This document shows, piece by piece, positions 2,294-35,374 of a stretch of 59,292 bases of DNA; within the stretch, counting starts at the first letter, position 1, and every line of letters starts with the position of its first letter. The notes beneath the pieces were generated by a model. That model saw only the letters and a list, made by a program, of their open reading frames with translations. It did not search any database and was not told the origin of the DNA. The stretch is from Candidatus Kaiserbacteria bacterium. GTDB lineage: Bacteria; Patescibacteriota; Minisyncoccia; Phycocordibacterales; UBA2100. The position numbers and the translations under genes are program-made. Location: positions 1 to 59,292 of the forward strand of contig JAHFMV010000006.1 in NCBI GenBank assembly GCA_023267655.1. Reading direction: 5' to 3'.

Positions 2294-3127
2294 TTACTTC
2301 TTTATCAGGTCTTTAAAGCGCTTGACCGACAAATCGAGGTAATTTTTCTCCAAGTCAACGCCGATGAACTTGCGACCGTGCGCGACGGCGGCTAAGCCCG
2401 TCGTCGAGCTGCCGGTAAATGGGTCAAGCACGATGTCGTTTTTGTCGGTACTCGCCAATACAATACGCTTCAGCAAATCGAGCGGTTTTTGCGTCGGGTG
2501 CTTTCCATACTTTTTCTCCGATGGTTTTGGCGTGCCCATTGACCACACGGATCGCATTTGGAGGCCTGGCTTTTTCAACTGATCTTCCGGCCAACGACCC
2601 CCTTTCATAAGATCGTAGTCAAACTTATGCTTTGCTTTCTTCTCTTTCCTCGCCCAAATGATAGTTTCGTGGCTTGCAGTAAAGAAACGGCAGCTCAAAT
2701 TTGGCGAAGCATTCGGTTTGAACCATGCGATGTCGTTGAGAATGTGAAAGCTGAGCGATTGGAGCGCATGCCCACATTGATATATCGAATGATAGGTACC
2801 ACTTACCCATAACGTGCCATGCGGCTTGAGTACACGCCTACAGGCTTCAAGCCAACGCACATGGAATTCGTAATCGTTTTGAAATCCTTTGCTCGCATCC
2901 CACGCCCCCTTGTTTACGCTGACCATTCGTCCCGCATGGACGGTAAAGCCACCGTTTGAGAGATTGTACGGCGGATCGGCAAAAATCATATCGATGGAAT
3001 CCTCCGGGAGAGTGCTCAGGAGTCCGATGGAGTCGGTGTTGTAGAGGACAAATTCCGGACTCGCAAAATACGGCTTATACGGGACATTCAAAAGAATCTT
3101 ATGATTTTTTTCGATCACGGGAGACAT
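2294..3127 (-). CDS. Beta-class DNA methyltransferase (N6-adenine or N4-cytosine)
   Basis: N-terminal FADPPYNL catalytic motif and C-terminal VLDPFTGSSTTG SAM-binding motif, plus HPTQKPLDLL. Confidence 0.9.
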   Translation of the reverse strand: MSPVIEKNHKILLNVPYKPYFASPEFVLYNTDSIGLLSTLPEDSIDMIFADPPYNLSNGGFTVHAGRMVSVNKGAWDASKGFQNDYEFHVRWLEACRRVLKPHGTLWVSGTYHSIYQCGHALQSLSFHILNDIAWFKPNASPNLSCRFFTASHETIIWARKEKKAKHKFDYDLMKGGRWPEDQLKKPGLQMRSVWSMGTPKPSEKKYGKHPTQKPLDLLKRIVLASTDKNDIVLDPFTGSSTTGLAAVAHGRKFIGVDLEKNYLDLSVKRFKDLIKK

Positions 3128-14536: not shown

Positions 14537-14541
14537 GTTAG

Positions 14542-14613
14542 TACGCCCACTAGGAATCGAACCTAGATACGCCGTGTATAAGACGACTGCTCTAACCGTT
14601 GAGCTATGGGCGC
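14542..14613 (-). tRNA. tRNA-Ile with anticodon UAU (no encoded CCA)
   Basis: Manual cloverleaf: GCGCCCA TA GCTC-AACGGTTA-GAGC A GTCGT-CTTATAC-ACGGC GTAT CTAGG-TTCGATT-CCTAG TGGGCGT A. G1-U72 wobble. Confidence 0.8.
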
Positions 14614-17825: not shown

Positions 17826-20800
17826 TTACGCAAGCGGCGCGTGTTCGATATCCTGCTTTTTCTTCGGTACGATACCGTGTTCGATCAATATCTTTTCAAA
17901 TGCATCACGTTCGAGATTCTCAACTTCGACAAGCGCCATCGCAATAGCATCAAGCGCCTTGCGGTGTTTCGTCATGACTTCGAGTGCACGCTTGTGTGCA
18001 TGTGTGATGATATCTTTTACTTCCGCATCGATTGCAGAAGCAACTTCTTCTGATTGCTGGTTTGGCTCGACGCCAGCACCAAAGAGCGTCCGTCCCATTG
18101 CCGGATCAAGCGCCATCGGACCAAACTTCTCCGACATGCCGTATTTTGCGACCATGTCGCGCGCAAGCGCAGTCAAAACCTGCAAATCATTTGATGCGCC
18201 CGTCGTTATGTCGTCATAAATCATCTTCTCCGCGATATACCCGCCAAGCGAAACCGCGATGTCATCGAGAAATTCTTTTTTCGATTGCATGCGGCGATCG
18301 TCAAGCGGCAGCTTCAGCGTGTATCCGGCAGCGCGGCCGCGCGATATGATCGAGACTTTGTGCACCGGATCAGCGTACGGCAAGACCGATGCAATGAGTG
18401 CATGCCCCGCTTCGTGATACGCGGTGATTTCTTTTTCCTTCTTATTCAACACGTGCGACCGGCGTTCGGGCCCGAGCATGACTTTCTCGATCGAGCGAAT
18501 GAGATCGTACTGCGTGACTTCGGTGCGGTCTTCGCGCGCGGCAAGAATCGCCGCTTCGTTCATCAAATTCGCGAGATCCGCACCGCTAAAGCCCGGAGTT
18601 CTCTCTGCGATCACATTCAGATTCGTATCCGGCCCCAACGGTTTTTGTTTCGCGTGCACTTTTAAAATTTCCTCGCGATCGCGACGATCCGGCAGGTCAA
18701 TCGTGACGCGACGGTCGAAACGACCGGGGCGAAGCAGCGCCGGATCGAGCACATCCGGGCGGTTCGATGCCGCCATCACGATGACTTTTTCGTTCGGCTC
18801 AAAGCCGTCCATTTCAACGAGAATCTGGTTGAGCGTCTGTTCGCGTTCATCATTTCCCCCACCAACGCCCGTGCCGCGAATGCGTCCGACTGCGTCGATT
18901 TCGTCCATAAAGACAATCGCGGGAGCGGCACGCTTTGCCGTTTGGAACAGATCACGCACGCGCGATGCGCCGACGCCGACGAACATTTCGACGAATTCAG
19001 AACCGCTGATGGAGAAGAACGGCACGCCGGCTTCGCCGGCAACCGCACGCGCAAGAAGTGTATTGTGGTTCACGAGTCCATTTGCAATAAAGTTATGACT
19101 TTGCGGCACTGTGAGGTCAAATACCCGCGCATGTCCGCTTTTCTTCTCAGTGATTTTTGTAAAGAAATAATTTCCCGATGAGATTTTCTGCAAGAAATTG
19201 ATCGATTGTGAATTTCCTATCGCGGGAGCTAGCTTCGTCACACCTGCAATAAAGGTCTGTAAGCCGCGTGGTGACGGATTCCTTTCTCCCGAAATATATC
19301 TTTTGGTGTTTTTATAGAGCATTTGGTTATAAAAAGCACGATCGAGTTTTGCAGTCGTTGTTGCACGCATTTCGTCCCATACAGCACGGATCAGAGCATT
19401 CTGGTGCGGAATCACGTTGATATTCGTGTTGCGTTGCCGCTCCACGAGCTCCGCAAGGCGCTCTCGTTTGTGCGCTACGGTAAATCCTATTTCCCTTTCA
19501 AACGCTTCCAGAAAATCGCCATACACGGTGATGTAGTGCTGCAAATGGCCGTTATAGAGTTTGGTACGTGAATATACGCGCGAAACGATACCAAGATTAA
19601 GAAGTATTGCGTGCACCTCCTCAATAAGTTCACGACTCGCGCTTGAAAGCCCGACGGCACCATGCTTTTCAACATATCCATCGGTATCAAATAGTCCGCG
19701 CAAGAACGCGGTCACATGCTCTTTGGGAGCGATTTTGACCCATACCGGGACACGCTTGTGATCCGCCCCGACTTCTGCGAGTCCGTACGAAATAATCTTT
19801 CGCTTTGTATCGCCGTTCGAAATCTCATAGTCATACGGGCGCGATTTCGTTTTCCGCCATTCAGTACCGAAGTACGTGCGCGTAATTGCCTGCATCCGAT
19901 CTACGATTTCCCTGTCGGCAGATGTAAACGCCAGGCGGTTTTTAGTTGTCATGCAGCCATCGCCGATGATAACGCCAAGCATGTATGAAATATCCGAATG
20001 TTGTATGCGCGTATACGAACCGAACAGGTTGGTGTCATATGCAACCACCGCATATTCTCCTTTTTGTATTTCGTCGAGTCGGCGGAACGCGAATTGGCCT
20101 GTTTTTGCATCTACTACGACAATCGGGTGCTCTGACGTTCCTTCGATGGTGATACCGAGGTCGGAATCAAGCCGCACCGTCGGCTGTTCTCCGAGATCAT
20201 ACCAATGAGACGCTCGCGCTGATTTGAGTTCAAGAGTATCCGGATCAACCGTGCATATTGCCAATCCATCAACCTGATTCTTTTCGTCTACGGAGAAAAA
20301 CTGCGGAATATCTTGGATTGGAATTAGTCCCTTGCCCGTTAACACTTGGGTTTCTCCGACAACGCATTTCCCCGTTCCCGGCGCGCCCATGAGGAGCACG
20401 CCCTTTGGAATCCGTGCGCCGATCTGAATAAATTTCTTCGGATTTTTCAAAAAGTCCACGATTTCAGTCAATTCCGCTTTTGCTTCACGTGCGCCCGCAA
20501 CATCAGCAAAGGTCACCCGCTGCACTTCGTCTTCGGGAGAAACCAATCGCGCCATCGAGCGACCAAACGTAAACGCTTGCATGCCCGCGCCGCGCACTTG
20601 GCGCGAGAGATACCACATAATGCCGAGCAGAAGAAGTACCGGGATCAAAAGAGGCGCAAGCGTGAGGATCCAATAGCGAAGTCCCCCCTGATCTTCCACA
20701 TTCACTTTCACGCTCGCGATTTCCCCCGCGGTCAATCCATAATGCGAGAGTGTGTCCGTAAACGATGCTTCGCTTTCTTTGCGCGAATCTTTCTTGGAAT

Positions 20801-21065
20801 TATCTTTGTAGGACGCATGAATCGTATCGCCGGAAATAGTAACTTCAGACACGGTGCCTGCACGAATATCTGCCGCAATCTGCGAGACAGGAACCGTTTC
20901 TGTCTTGTTCAACCAATATTCGCGCACCGCCGTGTACGCACCCGAGAGGACAAGAAAGATGACAAACGCGATCGCGACTTGCATCCAAATGCCCGGACGC
21001 TCCGGCAGTTGCGGCATGGATTTCTTGCCTTTCTTAGGCTTCTTTTGTTCGTCAGAGTCTGACAT
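17826..21065 (-). CDS. ftsH: FtsH AAA+ zinc metalloprotease, interrupted by an intein
   Basis: N-terminal TMs. Walker A is split as GAPGTGK|C...HN|[10 protein letters not shown]. Walker [19 protein letters not shown] zinc site. The extein is 644 aa. Confidence 0.95.
19062..20366 (-). mobile_element. 435-aa intein with LAGLIDADG homing-endonuclease domain inside the FtsH P-loop
   Basis: Starts [10 protein letters not shown] (block A), has TSEHPIVV (block B), LGVIIGDG and [12 protein letters not shown] (LAGLIDADG), and ends [10 protein letters not shown] followed by +1 Thr. Confidence 0.85.
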
Positions 21066-21590: not shown

Positions 21591-21912
21591 GAGTGTTTGA
21601 GGGTGCGAAGAAAGCACCTACCTAAAAGGAGGCATCTGATATGTCCTACATATGGAACCTGAAGCTATCAGAGATAGTTTCTATGATGGGGGGTAACACC
21701 GTAGGAGAAATCATTATATCTGTATTGGCGGGCTTGGTAGTATTCTACGTCCTGATGCTTATCTGGGAAGGCTTGTTGAATTGCTGGGATAGCACCCTAG
21801 AGCTTCTTGACCGAACAAAGCAGTTCTTCTCACGTTTAAAGCGACGAGAAAAGTCTCGCTTTTAACAAAACAGAATCGGGCGAACCTTAGTTCGCCCCAC
21901 CCTCAAGCACTC
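21591..21912. repeat. 15-bp inverted repeat pair bracketing the small ORF between smpB and ssrA
   Basis: GAGTGTTTGAGGGTG (21591-21605) against CACCCTCAAGCACTC (21898-21912), 14/15 complementary. Confidence 0.6.
21641..21865 (+). CDS. 74-aa single-TM protein
   Basis: Strong AAAGGAGG Shine-Dalgarno sequence, hydrophobic core IIISVLAGLVVFYVLMLIW, hairpin GGGCGAAC-CTTA-GTTCGCCC downstream (21878-21897). Confidence 0.5.
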   Translation: MSYIWNLKLSEIVSMMGGNTVGEIIISVLAGLVVFYVLMLIWEGLLNCWDSTLELLDRTKQFFSRLKRREKSRF

Positions 21913-23632: not shown

Positions 23633-24901
23633 ATGAACAAGAGTTTTTGGTGGAAGGAGGCGAAAATATACGAGCTGTATATTGATAAATTCGCGGGGAC
23701 GATTCAGAATCTCACGGCGCAGCTTGATTATTTTACGAAGCTCGGCATCAACACGCTCCATATCCTCCCGCATTATCCATCGCCGATGGTGGATGACGGC
23801 TACGATGTGATGGATTACCTGAACGTGCGGCCGGAATTGGGGACGCTTGAGGATTTTGACGCGCTCGTGAAAGAAGCACACGCACGTGGCATCCGCATCA
23901 TGCTCGATTTTGTGCTGAACCATGTGTCCGAATTCCATCCGTGGTTTATCGATGCGCGTACCCACAAAGACAGCATGCGCCGAGATTATTTTCTGTGGAG
24001 CGAAACCGGCACGGAACTTGCCGAAAGCTGGAACGCTTTCTCCGATCTGAAGCCGAAAAACTGGATTCGCAACGATCCGACCGGAGATTATTATTTTGCG
24101 ACGTTCTACCCGCAGCAACCGGATTTGAATTGGGACAATCCGGCCGTATTCGACGGCATGATGGCAAACATGGATTTTTGGGCGGACCGTGGGGTCGACG
24201 GCTTCCGTCTTGATGCCGCGGGCTCACTTATAAAACGCGAAGGATCGATTTCGAAAGGACTGCCGGAGACGCACGCCGTCCTCAAGCGAATCCGCGCACA
24301 TCTCGATGAGAAATATGGAGGCGCTATCGCCCTTCTTGCCGAAGCGCACCTTTCGATCGAAGGTATGAAAATGTATTTCGGCAACGGCGACGAGTGCCAT
24401 ATGATCTACCACTTTCCCTTGATGGAAGAAATGTTTCTCTCCCTTTTGTTCGACGAACCGGGACGTATGTCTGAAATGCTGGAGCAATCGCACGATATCC
24501 CCGCACATTGCGCATTTGCGACCTTCCTGCGCAATCACGACGAGATCTCGCTCTCGACACTCCCTCTCATTCGCCGCACGACACTTATTTCACTCCTTGA
24601 CCCGCACGGCGAATATCTTTTCAACAACGGCCAAGCGACTGCACTCCGATTGGCGAACATCTTTGCGGATGCGCCGCACAAACTCCGCGAAGCACTCGCG
24701 CTCCTGTATTCGCTTCCCGGCTCTCCCGTTATGTACTACGGCGACGAGATTGGAATGCGGAATCTCCCGCGTGACGGCGGCGAACTCGACACACGCAAAT
24801 ATGTGCGCGGTGCGTTTGATTGGGAGGAGGCGAGGCGGCAGATGCAAAATCCCGATTCGTTGTTCCATTTCGTCGCGAGCCTTATTCGTGCGCATTCTTA
24901 A
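23633..24901 (+). CDS. GH13 alpha-amylase-family enzyme (trehalose synthase / alpha-glucosidase-like catalytic domain)
   Basis: DDGYDVMDY, LDFVLNHVS, GVDGFRLDAA, LAEA, FLRNHDE: GH13 conserved regions I-IV. Confidence 0.85.
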   Translation: MNKSFWWKEAKIYELYIDKFAGTIQNLTAQLDYFTKLGINTLHILPHYPSPMVDDGYDVMDYLNVRPELGTLEDFDALVKEAHARGIRIMLDFVLNHVSEFHPWFIDARTHKDSMRRDYFLWSETGTELAESWNAFSDLKPKNWIRNDPTGDYYFATFYPQQPDLNWDNPAVFDGMMANMDFWADRGVDGFRLDAAGSLIKREGSISKGLPETHAVLKRIRAHLDEKYGGAIALLAEAHLSIEGMKMYFGNGDECHMIYHFPLMEEMFLSLLFDEPGRMSEMLEQSHDIPAHCAFATFLRNHDEISLSTLPLIRRTTLISLLDPHGEYLFNNGQATALRLANIFADAPHKLREALALLYSLPGSPVMYYGDEIGMRNLPRDGGELDTRKYVRGAFDWEEARRQMQNPDSLFHFVASLIRAHS

Positions 24902-26229
24902 TGTACCTCTCCCAGCATTGGAATGGCGAGGCGGCGGCGCGCAGTCTCGCCTTTGAATAACATACGATGACGAGCTGGTTTTTCGTAGCGCCCGAATTCT
25001 TGCCCAGTACCGAGCTTGCTCTGGTGCTGGGTCATCGCGGTAAAGCTTGAGCCAAGAAAGACGGCGTGCTTGCCATAGCGGCGTGAGATATCATCGACGC
25101 TTTCAAACACCATTTTTAATCCTTCAGATTCTTGGACTTTTCCGAAAAGATCGAGTTGCGCGGTTCCCGCGTCTTTCAGATCGACGAGCGTGATGCCGGT
25201 CGCGCGGTACTGCTTTCCTTTCTCGAAGACCTGCGAGAAGTATTTAGGGACCTCGCGCAAAATATCGTGCGGCACAGAAGTTGCATATGGTAATTTCACT
25301 TCAACGCCGTGGTATTTGAAATCCTGCGTCTTGAGGAAGAAAAAAACGCGGTTGCTTGCGAGATTCCACCTCCGCGCTTTAATGCAGGCGTTTTCCACAT
25401 TTTTCGAGAGCTGCGAGAAGATAAACGCTTGATTGCGCGAGGGTGGCGTGAAGGTTTTTGTCTTTGATATCGAGTGGTACGTTTCTTTCTTTTGTGTGTT
25501 CAGTTCGTACACGACTTCGCCGTTCAATTCCCGCCAAATTTCAAAATACGGTTTGGCGACTCTCTCGCGCACCCACGAGGCTTCCTTTTGTGCAAACTCA
25601 TGCGCTGTATAGATGCCATGCTTGTTGAGAAGCGCCCCCGTGTTTGCACCAATGCCCCAGATGTTCGTGAGCGGCGTCTTTTTAAGAAATGAGTCTGCCT
25701 CATTGAGCGGAATCACGGTAAAGCCGTCGGGCTTTTTCCATTTGGAGCCAATTTTCGCGAGGACTTTTGTTGCGGAGAGGCCGACGGAGAATGTGATACC
25801 GAGTTCGACGTTCAGTTCCTGCCTGATTGCGTGTGCCATGTCGCGATAATTCATCCTGTTCACGCGGCGCATGCCGGTCAAATCGGCAAAACATTCGTCG
25901 ATCGAATATTCCTCGACCGCGGGCGTATACCGCCGGACGATTTCGTACATGCGCTCGGAAAAGAGCGAGTATGTTTCGTAATCCGATGGAAGTATTACAG
26001 CGTCGGGGCACGCCTTGAGCGCATCGCTTAACTTCATACCACGCATGATTCCCCGCCGCTTGGCTTCGTACGTACATGCCGAGACGATGCCGCGTTCTTT
26101 GCCGGTGATGACCGGCTTCCCCTTCAGGCGCGGGTCTTTCGCCACTTCGACAGAAGCAAAAAATGAATCGCCATCGATATGTACGATGGCGCGTGGAAAA
26201 GAATACGATCGATTCCAGGTCATGACCAT
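24898..26229 (-). CDS. Y-family DNA polymerase (DinB/UmuC-like)
   Basis: IVHIDGDSFFASVE, SIDECFADLT, SVGLSATKVLAKIGS. Its start overlaps the mazG-like stop by 10 nt. Confidence 0.9.
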   Translation of the reverse strand: MVMTWNRSYSFPRAIVHIDGDSFFASVEVAKDPRLKGKPVITGKERGIVSACTYEAKRRGIMRGMKLSDALKACPDAVILPSDYETYSLFSERMYEIVRRYTPAVEEYSIDECFADLTGMRRVNRMNYRDMAHAIRQELNVELGITFSVGLSATKVLAKIGSKWKKPDGFTVIPLNEADSFLKKTPLTNIWGIGANTGALLNKHGIYTAHEFAQKEASWVRERVAKPYFEIWRELNGEVVYELNTQKKETYHSISKTKTFTPPSRNQAFIFSQLSKNVENACIKARRWNLASNRVFFFLKTQDFKYHGVEVKLPYATSVPHDILREVPKYFSQVFEKGKQYRATGITLVDLKDAGTAQLDLFGKVQESEGLKMVFESVDDISRRYGKHAVFLGSSFTAMTQHQSKLGTGQEFGRYEKPARHRMLFKGETARRRLAIPMLGEVH

Positions 26230-26612
26230 TTTCTTTTTTTATTAATTTCTTCCTTGTCGCGGAATGCTTTTTCAAGGTCAATACTGTATCGATTTGCGAT
26301 AGCGGCAGTGAAATTCAGAATGTCAGCCAACTCATCCGCTATTTCGGATACCGTTGAATCATGAGCAATGGTTATTCCCTCTCTCTTGCGAATTGCCTTG
26401 AAAAGCTCTCCGACTTCTTCTCCGAGCTGCAGTGCGGTTTGTATTGGCTTTAAATTACTCTTCTTAAATCCACGCTCTTTCTCAAGCGCGACGACATAGT
26501 CTTGTATATCTCGAAGGGTTGGCTGTTCTTTCAAATACAGACTGCTCTTTGTTTTAGTCATATTCTTTGGTTTACAGGTTTCTGTTGATAACTCATTGAC
26601 AATTCGCAACAT
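26220..26612 (-). CDS. MazG-like nucleotide pyrophosphohydrolase domain protein
   Basis: LQLGEEVGELFKAIRK...EIADELADILNFTAAIANRYSIDLEKAF (EExxE...DxxD). An alternative ATG lies at 26561. Confidence 0.75.
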   Translation of the reverse strand: MLRIVNELSTETCKPKNMTKTKSSLYLKEQPTLRDIQDYVVALEKERGFKKSNLKPIQTALQLGEEVGELFKAIRKREGITIAHDSTVSEIADELADILNFTAAIANRYSIDLEKAFRDKEEINKKRKWS

Positions 26613-26631
26613 GTCATATAGTATGACCTCA

Positions 26632-27078
26632 CTACGGACATGCGTCCTCCGAGATTCCCCGCCCCAAAGGCGGGGTTTCGTCTTTTAAATCCTCCCAGAG
26701 TATTCGTTGTAAGCCACGTCGAATAGTATCGAATGTTGTTCTATCCATCTTAAAAATAAGACGACGAAGTCGTTTTGTACTTATCAAACGTACCTGCGAG
26801 AGAATCGCGGCATAGGACCTCCCGGTGTGGACAAAAGGCACGTGGAACGGCGATGATTTCGGACGTGAAGTAGTTGGAATAGCGAGTACCATATCTTGGT
26901 TAAATTTCCGCAACACAACGACCGGACGTTCAAATATACTCGGACTTCCGTCCTGTTCACTTCCTATATTGACGCCGAGAGCGCACCACCATACTTCCCT
27001 CGCATTAACAAAATCGTTGAACGTAGATGTGTGTAATTGTTTCTTTCTATAATTCCACCGATCAAAGTCTTTCTCCAT
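26632..27078 (-). CDS. MazF/PemK-fold toxin-like protein 1 (148 aa)
   Basis: REVWWCALGVNIGSEQDG...RPVVVL...AIPTTS...ILSQVRLISTKRL matches the PemK/MazF pattern. No antitoxin ORF is adjacent. Confidence 0.65.
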   Translation of the reverse strand: MEKDFDRWNYRKKQLHTSTFNDFVNAREVWWCALGVNIGSEQDGSPSIFERPVVVLRKFNQDMVLAIPTTSRPKSSPFHVPFVHTGRSYAAILSQVRLISTKRLRRLIFKMDRTTFDTIRRGLQRILWEDLKDETPPLGRGISEDACP

Positions 27079-27083
27079 ACCCC

Positions 27084-27569
27084 TTACCGCGGCTGAAGAA
27101 TGTAGACAGGAGAGAATGGTGACGGTAATGTATGTTGATATCGTGGGCGTACGGCAAGAACTTTTCGTTGCACCCGACGTTGTACGATTGGTGCCTGAAG
27201 CGGCGTGGTTTCCGCAAGGAGGCGGACAATAGCCGTACTCAAGGCGCCAAACTCTTTCTCCCCAGCTTTGCCGAGGCGACGGAGGAGACGTTCAGCTTTG
27301 AGCGTGCGCATTTGTGAGAGTGCGGAAACTTTCTTGCCGTTTTTGAGACGCGGGACGTAAAGCGGTTTTCCTTTTTTACCAATATTCGTGAGTGGCAGTC
27401 CCCAAAACATGCCGTCCGTTGCTTTGCGGAACACGAGAACCGGCTTTTCAGATACACGGCGGGTCGTCGGATCGACGTGCCGGTACGACCACACTTCGCG
27501 CGACGAGTAAGCAGGCTCCGGCATCACCATCTCGTTTCTGAATAATTTTTGGAAAAGATTTTTGAACAT
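27084..27569 (-). CDS. MazF/PemK-fold toxin-like protein 2 (divergent paralog, 161 aa)
   Basis: REVWSYRHVD...KPVLVFRK...GLPLTN...ALSQMRTLKAERLLRRL aligns by eye with the 26632-27078 product. Confidence 0.5.
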   Translation of the reverse strand: MFKNLFQKLFRNEMVMPEPAYSSREVWSYRHVDPTTRRVSEKPVLVFRKATDGMFWGLPLTNIGKKGKPLYVPRLKNGKKVSALSQMRTLKAERLLRRLGKAGEKEFGALSTAIVRLLAETTPLQAPIVQRRVQRKVLAVRPRYQHTLPSPFSPVYILQPR

Positions 27570-27580
27570 ATAGATTTTGC

Positions 27581-27703
27581 GAATTCGATTAATTTTGGAT
27601 GCAGTACGAGACGCACAAGGGATTCAAGCGAGCCGTATCGAGCATACGGTGAGCGCAGGATCTCGCAGTGCAACGAAGTAATGCGCCAAAAGTAATCGAA
27701 TTC
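27581..27703 (-). other. 123-nt rod-like inverted-repeat RNA element between lexA and the toxin-like genes
   Basis: Outer arms GAATTCGATTAATTTT/AAAAGTAATCGAATTC (15/16 complementary), a middle 12-bp stem (27600-27611 / 27661-27672), and an apical hairpin CCGTAT-CGAGC-ATACGG. Confidence 0.5.
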
Positions 27704-27706
27704 ATA

Positions 27707-28276
27707 TTAGTATTTTCGTACGACGCCTGTTACTACCGCTTCTACCTTGAATGATTCCGTAGGATAGATATCAGGATATTTTTCATTGGCAGCCTCGAGG
27801 AAATACATATCCCCGATCTTGCGCAAATACTTCATCGTGAACTCGCCGTCTACCATCGCGATCACGATATCGCCCAGTTTGTAATTCGGACTGCGCTCTG
27901 CGATTACCATGTCGCCCTCTTTGATACCGGCACCGATCATCGAATCGCCTTTCACGCGCAAAATGTAACTGGATTCTTTGTTCGGCGTGAGGAATTCGTC
28001 GAAATTCATCACGTCGAGCAATTCTTCTTCTGCCGCCGACGGAAAACCGGCTTCTACGAGCCCAAGGAGCCTAACGCCGCCAGTGAGAAGATAGGGAGAG
28101 AGTCGTCCGCGAGCATCTTTCCTGACGACGTTATCGTCGACGAGTTTATTGATAAAACCGAAGACAGCGTTCTTGGATCTAAAACCCGTGAACTCCATGA
28201 TTTCTTTGTAGCCCGGAAGGCGTTTATTTTTTGTATAGAACGAAATAAGTCTGCTTTTATATGTGTCATAGGACAT
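27707..28276 (-). CDS. lexA: LexA repressor (wHTH + S24 peptidase)
   Basis: LVEAGFPS cleavage site (Ala-Gly), VKGDSM (Ser), FTMKYL (Lys). The start is moved to ATG 28276 because the track ORF start lies inside the promoter. Confidence 0.85.
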   Translation of the reverse strand: MSYDTYKSRLISFYTKNKRLPGYKEIMEFTGFRSKNAVFGFINKLVDDNVVRKDARGRLSPYLLTGGVRLLGLVEAGFPSAAEEELLDVMNFDEFLTPNKESSYILRVKGDSMIGAGIKEGDMVIAERSPNYKLGDIVIAMVDGEFTMKYLRKIGDMYFLEAANEKYPDIYPTESFKVEAVVTGVVRKY

Positions 28277-28304
28277 AGAGTTACGGATAAATTGATATAT
28301 CCGA

Positions 28305-28333
28305 AGTATAGTGAACGACGGTTCACCAGTCAA
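28305..28333 (-). promoter_or_regulatory. lexA promoter TTGACT-N17-TATACT
   Basis: -35 at 28328-28333 and -10 at 28305-28310 (minus strand). Confidence 0.65.
28311..28326. promoter_or_regulatory. LexA operator, Cheo-box type (GTGAAC-N4-GTTCAC)
   Basis: The GAAC-N4-GTTC inverted repeat lies in the spacer of the lexA promoter. Confidence 0.65.
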
Positions 28334-28363
28334 TATGAGTAGACTGTGGATAACTTTCTCCTC

Positions 28364-29032
28364 CTAGCTCACCCTCTTTCGCGTATGGTGATACCAACCG
28401 AGAGCGTAAACATCTGGCGTCAGAGAACGCATGGCGACGAGTTTGATGCAAATAAAGATGGTAAGGACGAGCGCGACAATGAGAAGCTTCGGATTCGCCA
28501 GCGCACTACCAAGGAGTACATATACGGTGAGCGATGGGATGACGCCGAGTGCCGTGCCGAGGATATACGTCCGGTATGACATGCTGGTAAGCCCTGCGCC
28601 ATAATTGATCGGATCGAACGGAGCGATCGGGATGAGCCGTAGGATCATCAGTGTGATAAAACCACGCTTCTGTACTACTTTGTCGAGTTTGCGGACGAAT
28701 TCAATGCGCGAATGACTCGCCCATTTATTGCCGAGAAAACGCGAGATGCTGAATGCGATGAGTGCCGAGACATTTTCACCGATATATCCTCCGAGAATGC
28801 CGATCCACGGACCAAATGTTGCTCCCCCGATGACAAGCATGACAGAATCCGGGATGAGGAGGATGGGACGGATGGCGTAGGCTAGGAGAAATAAAAGGAA
28901 ACTGTATTCAGGGTATAACATCACAAATTGTCTGATGTCATGAAAAAACGAACCTCCGTTGTATACGTATACTCCGACGCTGATAAGTATCGAGAACCAG
29001 AGGACAGCTGCAATAGCACGTATTGTATGCAT
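28364..29032 (-). CDS. DedA / TVP38-TMEM64 (VTT domain) membrane protein
   Basis: RFLGNKW...LRLIPIAPFDPINYGAGLT...YILGTALGVIP. Confidence 0.8.
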   Translation of the reverse strand: MHTIRAIAAVLWFSILISVGVYVYNGGSFFHDIRQFVMLYPEYSFLLFLLAYAIRPILLIPDSVMLVIGGATFGPWIGILGGYIGENVSALIAFSISRFLGNKWASHSRIEFVRKLDKVVQKRGFITLMILRLIPIAPFDPINYGAGLTSMSYRTYILGTALGVIPSLTVYVLLGSALANPKLLIVALVLTIFICIKLVAMRSLTPDVYALGWYHHTRKRVS

Positions 29033-31522: not shown

Positions 31523-33307
31523 CTATTGTTTCTTTCTTCGCACAAAAAGCAGCTCGTCCGGCAGACGGAAGAGGCCTTCGTCGTTTTTCTTTTGCTCGAT
31601 AAAGTGTGCGATAAAGCCGACGGAACGCGGGATGACAAAAAGCGCATTGAAAAATTCGGCGTCGACGAGTTCAGTGAGTTCGGTGTCGGAGAAACCTTCT
31701 TTTTCGGCGAGAATGTCGAGAAAAATCGCAGCCATCACGCCGTCGACGTTCAGAATGAGATTGCCGTTTTTCGCGGTCGTTACTTTTTCGATTTCACGGG
31801 CGAAATCGTAGTGTGGATGCTTTTTGAGGAGCGTTGCAAACTCGGCTATTGCGGCGACACGCGGATCAGGGATGCCGACGCGGTATTTCAAGTGGCCGAT
31901 GCCGAGGAGAAGTTTGCCTTCACGAGTCTTTTCTTCCACAAATTGTCCTGCTTCCTTTTTCGACGCAACACCATCAATCCACACGCGTGCCGCTTCGTTC
32001 ACCGCACCACCAAAGCGTGGACCAATCGTGAGGAGGCCGGCAGCGAGCGAGGAAACAAGATCCTTCCCCGCACGCGCCGTAATCATCGTATTCACTGCGC
32101 CGGAGACATTCCCGCCGTGGTCGATAAGGAGCGAGAAGACTGCCTCCGCGAACGCTGCAGTGACGTCGGATTTCACTTCTCTGCCGAGGATGGCTTCGAG
32201 TGATTTTTGTGCGAAGGTGGTTTCGGATGCGACAAGCTTTTTGTTCTTCACGAAGACCGGCACCGCATCCATATCGACAACTTCCCGCGTCGAGAGAATG
32301 CTTGCCTTTCGTTTTGAAAGCTCGTCCATAGGCACGACTCTATCATGGAATTCCGGCGTCGAAAGACCGCGAAGCGCTGCGAGAAATTCCGGAAACGTGT
32401 CGGGCGCGATCGCATCGACCGCGCGCAGAGCGTCGCGTTTTGCGCGAGCGCTTTCGTCTTTGTGGGCAACGAGCGCTTTCGCGTGGCCGAATTGCATGTG
32501 TTCGTCGAATGCTTCGTCGATGACCCCGGCGATATAAGCAATGACCGGCTTCGTAAGCTTTTTTGCCTTAATGAGTTCCACGATTTCATACTCATCAACG
32601 CCGCCAAGCTCGCCAAAGTAACAAATTGCTTTCGTCGCCGCGTCTTCTTCCGCGAGTGAAAGCACTTCGCCGAGAGATGAAATTGGGAACCGGTCGCCGC
32701 CGATTGAGATCGAGAATGAGACCCGCTTCCCCGCTTGCGCGACCGCAGTAATAAGCTCGTTCGTCATGCCGCCCGAAGTCGAGACGACGGCGACGGAACC
32801 AGCGGTTGCGAGTTTGCCTTGGTCGAGCTGTGCGAGGCCGATGCCGCCGATCGCACCGATTTTCAAATACCCGCCGACAAGAATGCCGACGCCCGATGGA
32901 CCCGCGATTATCTTTTCGCCACCGTATCGTTTGATGAGTTCGGTTTCGTGCCTCTCCGGGACGTTCTCGGCGAAAATGTGCCCTCCGTATGCGTCAGGAA
33001 ACGCATCAAAAAAAGCGACGGTCGAATCGAAGGCACGGCGTCCGCTCTGGACATTGAGCATCCAATTCACTTTTCCTACGAGGTGTTTAGGGAGCGCCGC
33101 AACATTCGGATAGCACGGGATGAGCACCTCGCCTTTCCCGAAGAAGAATTTGAGCGATTTGCGATTCGAGGTGATGCACGCAAGGATGGACGGCTCTTTT
33201 TTCCCGCATGCATAATCAAAATCGAGAATGGATTGGACAACACCCGGATGATTGCCGAGGACGAGCGTCTTTTGCCCTTTTTTGCGTATGTCTTGAATTG
33301 AGATCAT
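31523..33307 (-). CDS. aclA: ATP-citrate lyase alpha subunit (CoA-binding, CoA-ligase and citrate-synthase-like domains)
   Basis: SILDFDYACG, VSTSGGMTNEL, IGGDRFP, phospho-His motif QFGHAKA, C-terminal citrate-synthase-like LLGIGHLKYRVGIPDPR. The start is trimmed to MISIQD. Confidence 0.8.
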   Translation of the reverse strand: MISIQDIRKKGQKTLVLGNHPGVVQSILDFDYACGKKEPSILACITSNRKSLKFFFGKGEVLIPCYPNVAALPKHLVGKVNWMLNVQSGRRAFDSTVAFFDAFPDAYGGHIFAENVPERHETELIKRYGGEKIIAGPSGVGILVGGYLKIGAIGGIGLAQLDQGKLATAGSVAVVSTSGGMTNELITAVAQAGKRVSFSISIGGDRFPISSLGEVLSLAEEDAATKAICYFGELGGVDEYEIVELIKAKKLTKPVIAYIAGVIDEAFDEHMQFGHAKALVAHKDESARAKRDALRAVDAIAPDTFPEFLAALRGLSTPEFHDRVVPMDELSKRKASILSTREVVDMDAVPVFVKNKKLVASETTFAQKSLEAILGREVKSDVTAAFAEAVFSLLIDHGGNVSGAVNTMITARAGKDLVSSLAAGLLTIGPRFGGAVNEAARVWIDGVASKKEAGQFVEEKTREGKLLLGIGHLKYRVGIPDPRVAAIAEFATLLKKHPHYDFAREIEKVTTAKNGNLILNVDGVMAAIFLDILAEKEGFSDTELTELVDAEFFNALFVIPRSVGFIAHFIEQKKNDEGLFRLPDELLFVRRKKQ

Positions 33308-33308
33308 A

Positions 33309-34205
33309 TTATTTGAAAACGACTTTCCTATAGCTGTTGCGCGTCTTTGCCCACTTTTTCGGATCCATTTGCATAACATGAAATGCGAATCCATCGCGTT
33401 TGTCAGGAATGATAGAAAAACCATTTTTACCATCTTGAACGCGGAAAGAATTTCGAACCAGCATACTTCGCGCCTTGTGTATATCTTTCGCAACGAGGTG
33501 GATAAGTGCTATTTCTTGCATGTTCGTAAAGCGTTTCTGCAGAGGACTTTTAATCGCGCCGTGGACATTTCTATATTCTGCCGGCGTCAACCACTCTAAG
33601 AAATGCGGCCCGAGAATGAGACGTGTGGGTTTTTCCAATTTTCCGCCGAGAAGCTTTTGCCATGTCGCGGCACGTTTTTGCGGCCGTTGCGTGATGAATG
33701 TCATTCCGGTCAGTCCGTAAATTGTATTTTTTCCGATACTAACTGTATATGGCCTTGTCCAGTCGCGTCGCACATAGGTAAGCATGAATGACCAAGCGCC
33801 AGGAAGATATTTTTGAGGGATGTCTTGAAACGTCCACCAAGGATTCGAATCATTCGCCTCCTTCATTGTCTTCGACCACGTCGGCTTGAGCTTGAATCCA
33901 AGCTTGACCGCTTTTTTGTGGAATGCGTCCACGTTTTTTGATTCCCATGCAACGCCAAATGGCCTCGGATTACGTTGGAAGAACTTGTGGCTTGCAGTCT
34001 CTTTTTTATTGAACTCACTCTGATTTTCAACCCAGCAAAACTCAATGTAATCAGGACCGAAATTGACGAAACCGTTTCGCTTTCCCGGTGCGTGACGAAC
34101 CGTATTCTGATCCACGACAAATCCCGCTTTTTTGTAACGCTCCAAGTACCGATCAATATTCGGAACGTCCGCGAACGAGATGATGTGATTGAGAAAGGGC
34201 TTCAT
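33309..34205 (-). CDS. Glyoxalase-like/VOC-fold protein of unknown function
   Basis: 298 aa with an N-terminal HIISFADVPNIDRYLERYKKAGF beta-alpha-beta-like module. ATGA overlap with aclB, and 1 nt from the aclA start. Confidence 0.5.
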   Translation of the reverse strand: MKPFLNHIISFADVPNIDRYLERYKKAGFVVDQNTVRHAPGKRNGFVNFGPDYIEFCWVENQSEFNKKETASHKFFQRNPRPFGVAWESKNVDAFHKKAVKLGFKLKPTWSKTMKEANDSNPWWTFQDIPQKYLPGAWSFMLTYVRRDWTRPYTVSIGKNTIYGLTGMTFITQRPQKRAATWQKLLGGKLEKPTRLILGPHFLEWLTPAEYRNVHGAIKSPLQKRFTNMQEIALIHLVAKDIHKARSMLVRNSFRVQDGKNGFSIIPDKRDGFAFHVMQMDPKKWAKTRNSYRKVVFK

Positions 34206-35374
34206 GGTTTTACGAATTTGATGGCGTCTTCGACGGCTTTGGTGATGACCGTGTCGGAGCCGTAGATAGTGCCGAGCAATTCTTCTTTCGTGAGGAATTC
34301 GCGCATCAATTCGAGTCCTGCTTTTTCGTTCGGCCCGCCACGACGGACGAAGACCTTGATACCCTGTTTGCGCATCTCTTCGGCATTTTCCGTAAGCGCA
34401 TCAATGATGCCGGCAAATGTTTTGGCGATATCGGTAAAGTTCGCGACGCCACCCGCGATGACGAGTGCTTTTGTTTTCGCCTTTGACGCAAGACAGAGAG
34501 AGATAACTTCTCGCGCGTACAAATGCGTCTCTTCGCGCGTCGGACCACCGCTATATTCGCCGTAATTGCCGATCAAATCTCCTGCGCCTTGCAGTTGTGC
34601 TTCGTCAGCGATCACGATTGAACCGCCGCCACCGGAGAAAAGGAAAAAGAGTGCGCCGTCTTTATTGAGAACCTTGAGTGAGAGCTGCGCTGGTGTTGTT
34701 GCTGCAAGCGTTTCGACTACCTCCTCGGCTCCATGCTGCGCTTTTCCTTTTACCAGGTCGTCGTCTGTCCAATTCTTTGTGAAAAAAGCGCCCGCACTAT
34801 CCACCAAAACCGCCGCATCGAGCGGGATCGCAATGTCGTCGCGCACAACGAGCGGATTGATCTCGAGGAACGCAAAAAAGTTGTCGTTAAATTTCTGCAA
34901 AAGGTCGCGGAGGAATTTCTCATTGAGCCCTGTTTTCTTTGCCACTTTGGCGATGTCGGACTCGCCCGCAACAATAAGATTCGTAACAGCTTCCGGATGC
35001 GATTCGATCTCGATGCCGCCGTCTTTTGCGTGCAATATGCGCACGCCCTCGCGCACTCTCTCGAGCGAGAGATACTGTTCTTCTTCTGACTTGTGCGGAA
35101 ACAAGGGCTCAAGGAGGAACTGCGAGAAACCTTTTTTTGCCCAAACGGCGAAAGCATCCGCCACTTTCTTCGCATCAACATCCACCGCAACCAACCCTTG
35201 CTTCATACGCTTTTTGACGCCTTGATCCACTTTTGCGACCCACCCCATTAGAGAGCCTTTGGCCTCTAACGGGGCAAGCTTTCCTTTTTCATCCACTCGT
35301 ACAGAGATACCACGATACGAATCGCCAAGGATTATTTTCTTCGCGCGGTATTCAGTAAGCTTGACCCGCGACAT
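34202..35374 (-). CDS. aclB: ATP-citrate lyase beta subunit (ATP-grasp)
   Basis: FSGGGGSIVIAD, GNYGEYSGGPTREETHLYA, AGGVANFTDIAKTFAGI, VFVRRGGPN: ACL-specific motifs. Confidence 0.85.
   Translation of the reverse strand: MSRVKLTEYRAKKIILGDSYRGISVRVDEKGKLAPLEAKGSLMGWVAKVDQGVKKRMKQGLVAVDVDAKKVADAFAVWAKKGFSQFLLEPLFPHKSEEEQYLSLERVREGVRILHAKDGGIEIESHPEAVTNLIVAGESDIAKVAKKTGLNEKFLRDLLQKFNDNFFAFLEINPLVVRDDIAIPLDAAVLVDSAGAFFTKNWTDDDLVKGKAQHGAEEVVETLAATTPAQLSLKVLNKDGALFFLFSGGGGSIVIADEAQLQGAGDLIGNYGEYSGGPTREETHLYAREVISLCLASKAKTKALVIAGGVANFTDIAKTFAGIIDALTENAEEMRKQGIKVFVRRGGPNEKAGLELMREFLTKEELLGTIYGSDTVITKAVEDAIKFVKP

Follow-up and report, generated by a model that had tools for sequence, protein, structure and literature searches.

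A conserved LexA-headed translesion polymerase cassette from Candidatus Kaiserbacteria with a MazF-fold middle gene and a candidate convergent RNA antitoxin

Operons under LexA control that carry both a specialised DNA polymerase and toxin genes are known. In Escherichia coli, the dinB-yafN-yafO-yafP operon joins LexA-regulated Pol IV to a co-transcribed type II toxin-antitoxin pair (yafNO), and in the same organism mazG follows mazEF. The umuDC genes, yolD-uvrX of Bacillus and SPbeta and lexA-dinB of Geobacter are SOS loci of the S24/accessory-polymerase kind. RNA-based control of toxins takes other forms, among them type I systems in which a convergent antisense RNA overlaps the 3' end of the toxin gene (txpA/RatA and bsrG/SR4 in Bacillus subtilis and the SOS-induced symE/SymR in E. 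coli) and the type III systems, whose ToxN toxin has been likened in fold to Kid/MazF. In the candidate phyla radiation (CPR) or Patescibacteria, bacteria with tiny genomes that are unculturable, toxin control and the response to DNA damage are known almost only from sequence. Here we analyse a locus that touches on all of these themes, in a 59,292-nucleotide stretch of DNA from a Candidatus Kaiserbacteria bacterium (assembly GCA_023267655.1, contig JAHFMV010000006.1, positions 1 to 59,292; hereafter the window). At this locus lexA, two genes of the MazF toxin fold, a MazG-like gene and a Y-family polymerase gene follow one another on the minus strand.

A preliminary description of the locus, made from the letters alone, saw a DNA damage-triggered operon with a pair of antitoxin-less MazF-like toxins, for which either LexA or a structured RNA encoded in the spacer behind lexA would act as antitoxin. 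The five consecutive minus-strand open reading frames (ORFs) of that description were recovered at the same coordinates within 24898-28333. The reading that we favour, to which we assign a probability of about 0.55, is that the operon is an SOS translesion cassette of a Paceibacteria-type CPR bacterium, built upon a core of lexA, a middle gene (designated X, previously MazF-like 2) and the Y-family polymerase gene (polY), in which the X protein would have been disarmed and into which the other toxin-fold gene, MazF-like 1, would have been inserted together with an RNA antidote.

In at least 10 related genomes from metagenomes, the core genes lie close together at a single syntenic location on the chromosome. 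They encode an S24/LexA protein of 189 amino acids, an X protein of 153-163 amino acids and a polymerase of ~434 amino acids, with gaps of 1-34 nt between the genes. On one side the cassette is bordered by ATP-citrate-lyase-like genes, a CMAS methyltransferase gene and a gene for a VTT protein and on the other by genes for an alpha-amylase, transfer-messenger RNA (tmRNA), SmpB and FtsH, and the window has the same neighbours. Loci L010, L011, L013, L015, L019 and L100 and the P0124 contig carry lexA-X-polY without inserts (one of these, other than L100, being cut off after X). L018 and L102 have the order lexA-X-MazG(-polY), with MazG copies that are 79% (L018) and 82% (L102) identical to that of the window, and lack MazF-like 1. 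In L101 the order is lexA-spacer-X-polY with another PemK-like gene between X and polY and no MazG; the product of this PemK-like gene is 36% identical to MazF-like 1 and has the catalytic arginine and the P-T-T residues intact. The window cassette comprises the core with the MazG-like gene, MazF-like 1 and the spacer. On this comparison of gene content, the last three are lineage-variable inserts in a three-gene core.

The lexA gene (27707-28276, minus strand) is preceded by a promoter at 28305-28333 (minus strand), TTGACT (28333-28328)-N17-TATACT (28310-28305), and a LexA operator, GTGAAC-CGTC-GTTCAC (28311-28326, minus strand), occupies the space between the -35 and -10 hexamers. No other promoter-like site was seen on the minus strand from 24500 to 28600. 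The motif GAAC-N4-GTTC occurs twice in the window where 1.4 occurrences are expected, which is around chance level, and the significance of the operator lies not in this count but in its position within the promoter and its conservation in the cassette loci. A LexA box is found upstream of lexA in every cassette locus whose fetched sequence reaches that far. It lies within an aligned -35/-10 promoter in the window, L010, L011, L013, L018 and L019, the exception among the six aligned loci being L015, where the box is ~190 nt upstream of lexA. The single promoter with a LexA box that was previously proposed to head the operon is thus confirmed in both its parts, and the operator points to autoregulation of the operon by LexA. 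Because of the synteny and the conserved promoter and LexA box, we regard the region as a real and conserved chromosomal translesion cassette that is, judged from its operator, under LexA control.

Two further observations concern short sites. The second GAAC-N4-GTTC site in the window (GAACCTTAGTTC, 21882-21893) lies between smpB and the tmRNA gene, ~165 nt upstream of the latter; no match to a site of this kind was reported in the corresponding part of the related loci. In addition, a perfect copy of a DnaA-box-like 9-mer, TTATCCACA, is located at 28345-28353 (minus strand), 11 nt upstream of the lexA -35 hexamer. This 9-mer is present twice in the window against 0.24 expected, and it also precedes the LexA box at close range in L010, L011, L015, L018, L019, L100 and L102. 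With its LexA operator and candidate DnaA-box-like site, the lexA promoter could serve as a small-scale model of the way in which a minimal genome brings together signals from replication and from DNA damage.

The proteins at the two ends of the operon are those expected of such a cassette. The 189 amino acid lexA product has an N-terminal winged-helix DNA-binding domain and an S24 autopeptidase domain (Pfam Peptidase_S24, E 1.6e-25). Its best PDB matches are full-length LexA proteins, with the Ala-Gly site, the serine of GDSM and the lysine all aligned, and it can be aligned along its full length with the LexA proteins of E. coli and Thermotoga maritima (VEAG/VAAG, GDSM/GMSM, MKYLRK/VKRLKK). 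The protein scores below the curated threshold of TIGR00498 (98.8 bits against a cut-off of 110.95), is divergent, as a CPR sequence, and is 82-87% identical to its cassette orthologs. The polymerase gene (24898-26229, minus strand) encodes a protein with Pfam matches to IMS (E 3.3e-47), IMS_HHH (E 1.9e-6) and IMS_C (E 1.6e-14); its best NCBIfam models are those for Pol IV, all scoring under their cut-offs, and its best PDB match is also a Pol IV (7yll, E 3e-47). It is 70-77% identical to the cassette orthologs in full-length alignments. The start codon is probably at 26223 instead of 26229, and the C-terminal ..RRLAIPMLGEVH may be a clamp-binding motif. Operator conservation and these domain matches together support the earlier view that the locus is a LexA-autoregulated operon ending in a Y-family polymerase gene.

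The X gene (27084-27569, minus strand; 161 amino acids) is the least obvious member of the core. Its match to the PemK family falls short of the Pfam gathering threshold (17.5 bits against 23.1, E 0.0048), and similarly weak sub-threshold matches are seen in 48 of the 55 clusters of X homologs (best E 4.2e-5). When the X and MazF-like 1 families are compared by hhalign, they align with a probability of 98.4% (E 4.9e-15) over 122 columns that include an N-terminal extension, and tblastn searches with X retrieve genes of the MazF-like 1 family with E values down to 1e-12. As a profile search of X against PDB sequences gave no matches, the fold was taken from an AlphaFold2 model (core predicted local distance difference test score, pLDDT, ~90) and Foldseek, in which the top 50 PDB matches are all MazF proteins (E down to 3.8e-5, target-normalised TM-score 0.51-0.61). 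Together with the Pfam match of MazF-like 1, these results bear out the suggestion that the 148 and 161 amino acid proteins both have the MazF fold. Each X homolog that was looked up sits between an S24/lexA gene and a Y-family polymerase gene; the few that are named are labelled Paceibacterota or Minisyncoccia, and none was found in the phages or viral contigs searched. We infer from these relationships that X descends from a CPR 'solo MazF' family, of which it would be a diverged paralog.

The residues on which MazF activity depends are not conserved across the X family. At the position of E. coli MazF R29, 44 of the 55 have arginine, 10 lysine (as in the window) and one histidine, and at the position of T52 threonine (21) or serine (7) is replaced by glutamine (12), alanine (7), methionine (4), valine (3) or lysine (1) in the remainder. 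Elsewhere the X core is strongly constrained, with the sequence SQMRTL invariant or nearly so, and X has acquired a disordered linker that leads to a nearly invariant C-terminus, ..P.Y.LQPR. There is no partner gene for X, whether for a protein or an RNA, as the gaps leave no room for one. The view that the two MazF-like genes are equivalent toxins does not survive this comparison: X is present in every related locus and is degenerate at its catalytic positions, and MazF-like 1 is a lineage-specific insertion. By its position and by analogy, X may be a domesticated protein, non-toxic or weakly active, that acts as an accessory to the polymerase or as a regulator of the SOS state, in a role like that of UmuD' or YolD. 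X is not, however, a member of either of those families. Neither it nor its 55 homologs carry YolD, UmuD or ImuA signatures (the YolD and Peptidase_S24 (PF00717) Pfam models giving nothing at E values up to 1), and family membership of this kind was rejected.

An alternative is that X is an SOS effector, a weak or specialised RNase or a protein that binds RNA or single-stranded DNA, and that it arrests growth after DNA damage, in the checkpoint role of SulA, YneA and ChiZ beside lexA in other bacteria. X would then be held in check by LexA repression and by turnover through its C-terminal tail, and would have no role with the polymerase. Such a role would suit a gene that comes immediately after lexA in every locus and a protein whose conserved tail follows a disordered linker, as degrons and docking peptides typically do; moreover, every one of the 55 homologs keeps a basic residue at the arginine position and half keep threonine or serine, and the core SOS regulon of Gram-positive bacteria includes a cell-division inhibitor (PMC7739468). 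Against this, in 27 of the 55 the threonine/serine position is taken by glutamine, alanine, methionine, valine or lysine, and X is coupled as tightly to the polymerase gene as to lexA. We consider growth arrest by X rather unlikely, though worth keeping in mind, and prefer to see X as a probably disarmed component of the translesion cassette.

MazF-like 1 (26632-27078, minus strand; 148 amino acids) begins 5 nt after X and is a more conventional protein. It passes the cut-off of PemK (PF02452) comfortably (E 1e-12, 48.6 bits against 23.1), as had been anticipated for it, and its PDB sequence matches, though weak, are all to MazF, PemK or EndoA; its AlphaFold2 model has a pLDDT of 78.6. The family to which it belongs has a conserved N-terminal extension of ~25 amino acids with the motif EKDFDxWN, and the equivalents of the E. 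coli catalytic residues R29 and T52 are present in all aligned members (R51 in 48/48, T/S70 in 48/48). A search gave 299 homologs, mostly from Patescibacteria, and a scan of metagenomes confirmed at least 529 relatives. Their genomic contexts are diverse, one being inside a ribosomal-protein operon, and lexA, MazG or polymerase genes were found within 4 kb in none of 80 family loci. Some of the genes form tandem arrays of two to four paralogs (L068, L077, L020/L021 and L046).

A protein antitoxin for MazF-like 1, of the MazE, PemI, AbrB or RHH type, was sought and rejected: the upstream gap is 5 nt long and the 70 nt that follow the gene hold the promoter of an RNA. Clustering of neighbouring ORFs at 83 family loci likewise yielded no conserved protein partner, and most of the small ORFs that abut family genes look spurious. 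The statement that no protein-antitoxin ORF adjoins either of the MazF-like genes has held, with no conserved one found across these 83 loci. PADLOC gave no defence-system match for any of the five operon proteins. Among phages, the only relatives of MazF-like 1 (locus L105, Campylobacter phage CJIE4-3, 1480-2010) are 33% identical to it, are annotated as toxin MazF and have no annotated antitoxin.

Whilst MazF-like 1 has no protein partner, the family does carry a conserved convergent small-RNA gene, and the description of MazF-like 1 as partnerless has to be abandoned. The first sign of this RNA was that tblastn alignments of the family continue past the stop codons of the genes, which raised the suspicion of a conserved nucleotide element. 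In the window, a promoter (TTGACA-N17-TAGTAT, 26596-26624, plus strand) that matches the consensus at 10 of 12 positions is followed by a candidate RNA of ~60 nt (~26629-26690, plus strand) consisting of a 5' motif, a hairpin (GGAC-AUGC-GUCC), the linker UCCGAG, a GC-rich terminator hairpin (26657-26675) and a U-run. The RNA lies between MazF-like 1 and MazG and runs antisense to the MazF-like 1 coding sequence over its final 59 nt. In the preliminary description, this plus-strand promoter and the candidate RNA that it would serve had been overlooked.

The same layout recurs behind nearly every gene of the family. On the strand opposite to the MazF gene and 3' of it are found, in order, a promoter, the motif AC(A/U)(A/U)A(U/C)GG, a GGCC-loop-GGCC hairpin, a CCGAG linker, a GC-rich hairpin and a U-run. 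A sigma-70-type promoter (TTGACn, also TTGnnn, with N16-18 and TAnnnT) is present downstream of MazF in 73 of 77 distinct family loci, and in 66 of the 77 it is just upstream of the conserved RNA. A covariance model, R1, built from nine hand-annotated seeds of which the window copy is one, gives that copy 57.7 bits and finds no second copy in the window. It detects 48 full-length copies with E<0.01, all of them antisense to and immediately 3' of a MazF-like 1 family gene except for a single orphan in L004, and it has no matches in cassettes that lack a second MazF. The orphan (2818-2877, plus strand) has its own promoter (TTGACA-N17-TATGCT) and no adjoining MazF; a RhuM/Fic gene lies downstream of it, and a MazF-like 1 homolog is ~2 kb away. 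In two of the tandem arrays mentioned above, L068 and L077, two copies of the RNA each were also detected.

In the alignment fitted to R1, 97.3% of the cells pair compared to 79.1% in shuffles, and compensatory changes are seen in 12 of the 15 base pairs. Covariation scores 0.394 there, where shuffles reach 0.12 and slid controls 0.02-0.07. RNAalifold applied to a plain MAFFT alignment recovered only part of the structure, the whole of it requiring the hand-annotated seed and realignment with the covariance model. The first hairpin and the two single-stranded motifs are conserved among loci whose proteins are only 38-59% identical. No Rfam family matches the RNA. Of its two subtypes, A has the CCGAG linker, and B has a third hairpin, which spans the MazF stop codon as a bidirectional terminator.

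The toxin stop codon usually falls in the complement of the RNA U-run, giving a median overlap of 7 nt, but in nine loci and the window the reading frame stays open across the entire RNA region (overlap 57-59 nt). As a result, the C-terminal 'tail' PPLARGPRxPHG, which in the window is ETPPLGRGISEDACP (26632-26690, minus strand) and is also found in P0003, P0005, P0011, P0017, P0021 and P0068, is probably no more than the translated small-RNA region where the usual stop is missing; a functional peptide motif is not likely. The sequence predicts a cis-antisense arrangement, the promoter, the terminator and the overlap being all present and conserved in it. Upstream of the small-RNA promoter, a 9-mer of the TTATCCACA type with no more than one mismatch is located within 40 nt in 13 of 65 loci, compared with a background of 1%. 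At the phage locus L105, where R1 gives no match, there is a TGATATAAT -10 element on the antisense strand, and a terminator hairpin (CCCCGC/GCGGGG) abuts the MazF stop codon; the convergent-RNA layout may therefore exist outside the CPR.

Could this element be something more mundane? The larger helix is built like an intrinsic terminator, and it is conceivable that the element is simply a bidirectional terminator or a stability element in the 3' untranslated region of MazF-like 1 genes, with a promoter that is fortuitous or unrelated, and that the protein is a non-toxic housekeeping or defence RNase in no need of an antidote. The very varied contexts of the family, even that of a ribosomal-protein operon, would be tolerable if the protein were harmless. 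It is hard to see, however, why, in 66 of 77 loci, the conserved 5' motif should then be closely preceded by a correctly spaced -35/-10 pair, or why a terminator should need the first hairpin and two conserved single-stranded motifs. The U-run of the small RNA is moreover on the antisense side, and the copy in L004 is an orphan with a promoter of its own. We judge a mere terminator to be decidedly improbable. The small RNA is instead our best candidate for the antitoxin of MazF-like 1, ahead of LexA or the spacer, and the simplest reading of the sequence is that MazF-like 1 and its RNA form a two-part module of ~520 bp, of a kind common in CPR genomes, that has been inserted between X and MazG.

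The spacer between lexA and X (27570-27706, minus strand), the other RNA that was put forward as an antitoxin, is 137 nt long, and most of it is a palindromic insertion of 123 nt (27581-27703, minus strand) with 18-nt terminal inverted repeats. The inverted repeat, I2, is 94% complementary. The insertion is flanked by an (A)TATG duplication, within which lies the ancestral start codon of X; in L100 the site is empty (TAATATGTTCAA). A second copy is present at the same site in L101, 93% identical to that of the window over 125 nt. The RNA is predicted to fold strongly (-42.7 kcal/mol, z -4.6), and no compensatory pair changes in the hairpin distinguish the two copies. The spacer has no Rfam match and no copy in the viral contigs searched. 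A 38 amino acid ORF within it was considered as an antitoxin and rejected, the coding differences between the window and L101 amounting to eight non-synonymous codon changes and one synonymous. As 8 of the 10 cassettes scored for content lack the spacer, it is not a general antitoxin for X; it has the look of a small palindromic element that is either mobile or under strong constraint.

It remains to weigh the original idea, in which the MazF-like pair are active toxins without antitoxins of their own, checked by LexA repression and with LexA or the spacer RNA taking the part of antitoxin. There is something to be said for this. No protein antitoxin ORF adjoins either gene, the strongly folding spacer differs less between the window and L101 (93% identity) than the flanking genes do (~77%), and it is found in both of the cassettes that have a second, catalytically intact MazF and in none of the eight others (2/2 against 0/8; our own Fisher estimate from these counts is ~0.02). 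But at least eight cassettes have X and no spacer, X does not conserve its catalytic positions, MazF-like 1 brings its own RNA gene, which ~50-70 unrelated loci have without a spacer or lexA, and the spacer copies show no compensatory changes. Nothing points to LexA as an antitoxin either, there being no indication that it binds a MazF-fold protein. We consider this pairing of unguarded toxins highly improbable. The distribution of the spacer would fit a role in keeping down basal expression of the toxin from the lexA promoter, either as an insulator or as a processing site.

The MazG-like gene (26220-26561, or to 26612 with the upstream start; minus strand) encodes a predicted nucleoside triphosphate pyrophosphohydrolase (MazG Pfam, PF03819; E 3.9e-7, with 30.7 bits where the cut-off is 22). 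Its start is most likely M18 (26561), on which the gene call and the homologs agree, giving a protein of 113 amino acids rather than the 130 obtained from 26612. The 868 homologs are 105-115 amino acids in length and the named ones come mostly from Patescibacteria. The gene lies between X and the polymerase gene in L018 and after X in L102, and the L103 copy is in a non-SOS context. A mazEFG-type linkage, as suggested by the gene order, is not borne out, since the MazG-like gene is a common CPR pyrophosphatase gene that occurs in cassettes without MazF-like 1 (L018 and L102), from which it follows that the adjacency of the two in the window is secondary. The role of the MazG-like protein would be to clean the deoxynucleoside triphosphate pool used by the error-prone polymerase.

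Several points weigh against the reading of the operon as a core cassette with a disarmed X and an RNA-guarded insert. The alignment in which the RNA covaries was itself fitted to the model, and the larger of its helices, being also a terminator, would covary for that reason alone. The convergent RNA promoter sits inside the operon, where it could interfere with transcription of the MazG and polymerase genes. At one family locus only, L091 (292-471, plus strand), a 59 amino acid AbrB/MazE-like ORF (MARRKLSERNVRSLIKTQSSYLVTLPIEAIRSLGWKKSQKLVVEVDNKRGRIIIKDWEK) ends 2 nt before the MazF gene, and some members of the family may therefore use a protein antitoxin. X matches no known polymerase-accessory family, so that only its place in the operon and analogy speak for an accessory role, and with arginine, lysine or histidine at the catalytic arginine position in all 55 homologs and threonine or serine in half of them, X may keep some RNase activity. 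Finally, the co-occurrence of the spacer with a second MazF is not explained by our model.

Away from the cassette itself, three features of the window may be recorded. The two adjoining genes at 31523-35374 (minus strand) encode Citrate_bind, Citrate_synth_N, Ligase_CoA and Citrate_synt domains, of the ATP-citrate-lyase/citryl-CoA type; this pair lies beside the cassette in all of the relatives and represents an unusual metabolism for a CPR genome. FtsH (17826-21065, minus strand) is 1079 amino acids long in the window compared with ~645 in syntenic relatives, the extra length being an intein with a LAGLIDADG homing-endonuclease domain that is inserted in the AAA region. ARAGORN also calls a tRNA-Ile with anticodon UAU (tat) at 14541-14613 (minus strand), an uncommon way for bacteria to read AUA.

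How might the operon work? On the reading that we prefer, DNA damage would lead to RecA-stimulated cleavage of LexA and hence to derepression of the whole operon. The toxin mRNA would then outrun the separately transcribed small RNA, and the result would be a transient, RNase-dependent growth brake that operates alongside lesion bypass. The small RNA might pair, as an antisense RNA, with the toxin mRNA at its 3' end, in the manner of type I systems, or might bind the RNase through AC(A/U)(A/U)A(U/C)GG and CCGAG, in a manner closer to that of type III. The conservation of the single-stranded motifs, of which one is ACA-like, suggests recognition by the RNase and so a type III-like element in the interaction.

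In its broadest form, the proposal is that there is a class of RNA antitoxins for MazF endoribonucleases that combines a type I layout with type III-like action as a pseudo-substrate, and that the disarmed X has become a fixed subunit or regulator of the polymerase. This we put forward tentatively, as an idea that may well prove wrong. If it is true, the window operon would be a natural growth brake triggered by DNA damage. Should the small RNA be an antitoxin, MazF toxins would no longer be exclusively type II and many (hundreds) of the apparently orphan MazF proteins in the CPR would be explained. Should X work with the polymerase or with the SOS switch, it would represent a clear case of the reuse of a toxin fold, and mutagenesis cassettes would gain an accessory gene of a new kind.

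Among the closest of the systems already described is dinB-yafNOP, which like the window locus places a Y-family polymerase and a toxin-type gene on one LexA-controlled transcript. The window operon differs in being headed by lexA, in having toxin-fold genes of the MazF rather than the YafO type and in lacking a protein antitoxin. Further, X is fixed and probably disarmed, and the other MazF comes with an antisense RNA. The second comparison is with cassettes that join an S24 gene to a polymerase gene: umuDC, yolD-uvrX, lexA-dinB and those under HdiR, for which one study mentions an HdiR-controlled mutagenic cassette in Streptococcus uberis and HdiR-regulated umuC loci in S. thermophilus (PMC8565304). 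Here too an S24 gene adjoins a Y-family polymerase gene behind a self-repressed promoter, often with a small accessory gene in between, but in the window the S24 protein is a full-length LexA with its DNA-binding domain, rather than UmuD, and the accessory protein has the MazF fold.

Among toxin-antitoxin systems, the type II MazEF/PemIK pairs resemble the window in that MazF-like 1 passes as a PemK, with the arginine and threonine kept, and has a MazG-type gene downstream; they differ in that the window has no MazE or PemI gene, that its toxin-fold protein carries the ~25 amino acid N-terminal extension and that the MazG adjacency is secondary. With the type I systems txpA/RatA, bsrG/SR4 and symE/SymR the window would share a convergent RNA that has its own promoter and overlaps the toxin 3' end in cis, as its sequence predicts, and the window toxin mRNA would be SOS-induced, like that of symE. 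The type I toxins are, however, small hydrophobic membrane peptides, whereas the candidate toxin of the window is a MazF-fold protein, a presumed RNase, of the 130-150 amino acid class (148 in this case), and its RNA has conserved single-stranded motifs. In type III systems (ToxIN, CptIN and TenpIN) a non-coding RNA neutralises a protein endoribonuclease, as would be the case here, but the type III antitoxin consists of tandem repeats, encoded upstream on the same strand and processed by the toxin, and the window RNA is single, downstream and convergent. No tandem repeats were reported in the region, and the ToxIN-like architecture is absent.

Neither a MazF-fold middle gene in an SOS cassette nor a convergent RNA on a MazF toxin had a match in Rfam or in the literature searched, which excludes one study of the Patescibacteria SOS network that is likely to bear on this operon. 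LexA-controlled operons that join a polymerase to a toxin are already known, as are S24-polymerase cassettes; what appears to be new, by these searches, is the MazF-fold gene in the middle of such a cassette and the convergent RNA attached to a MazF.

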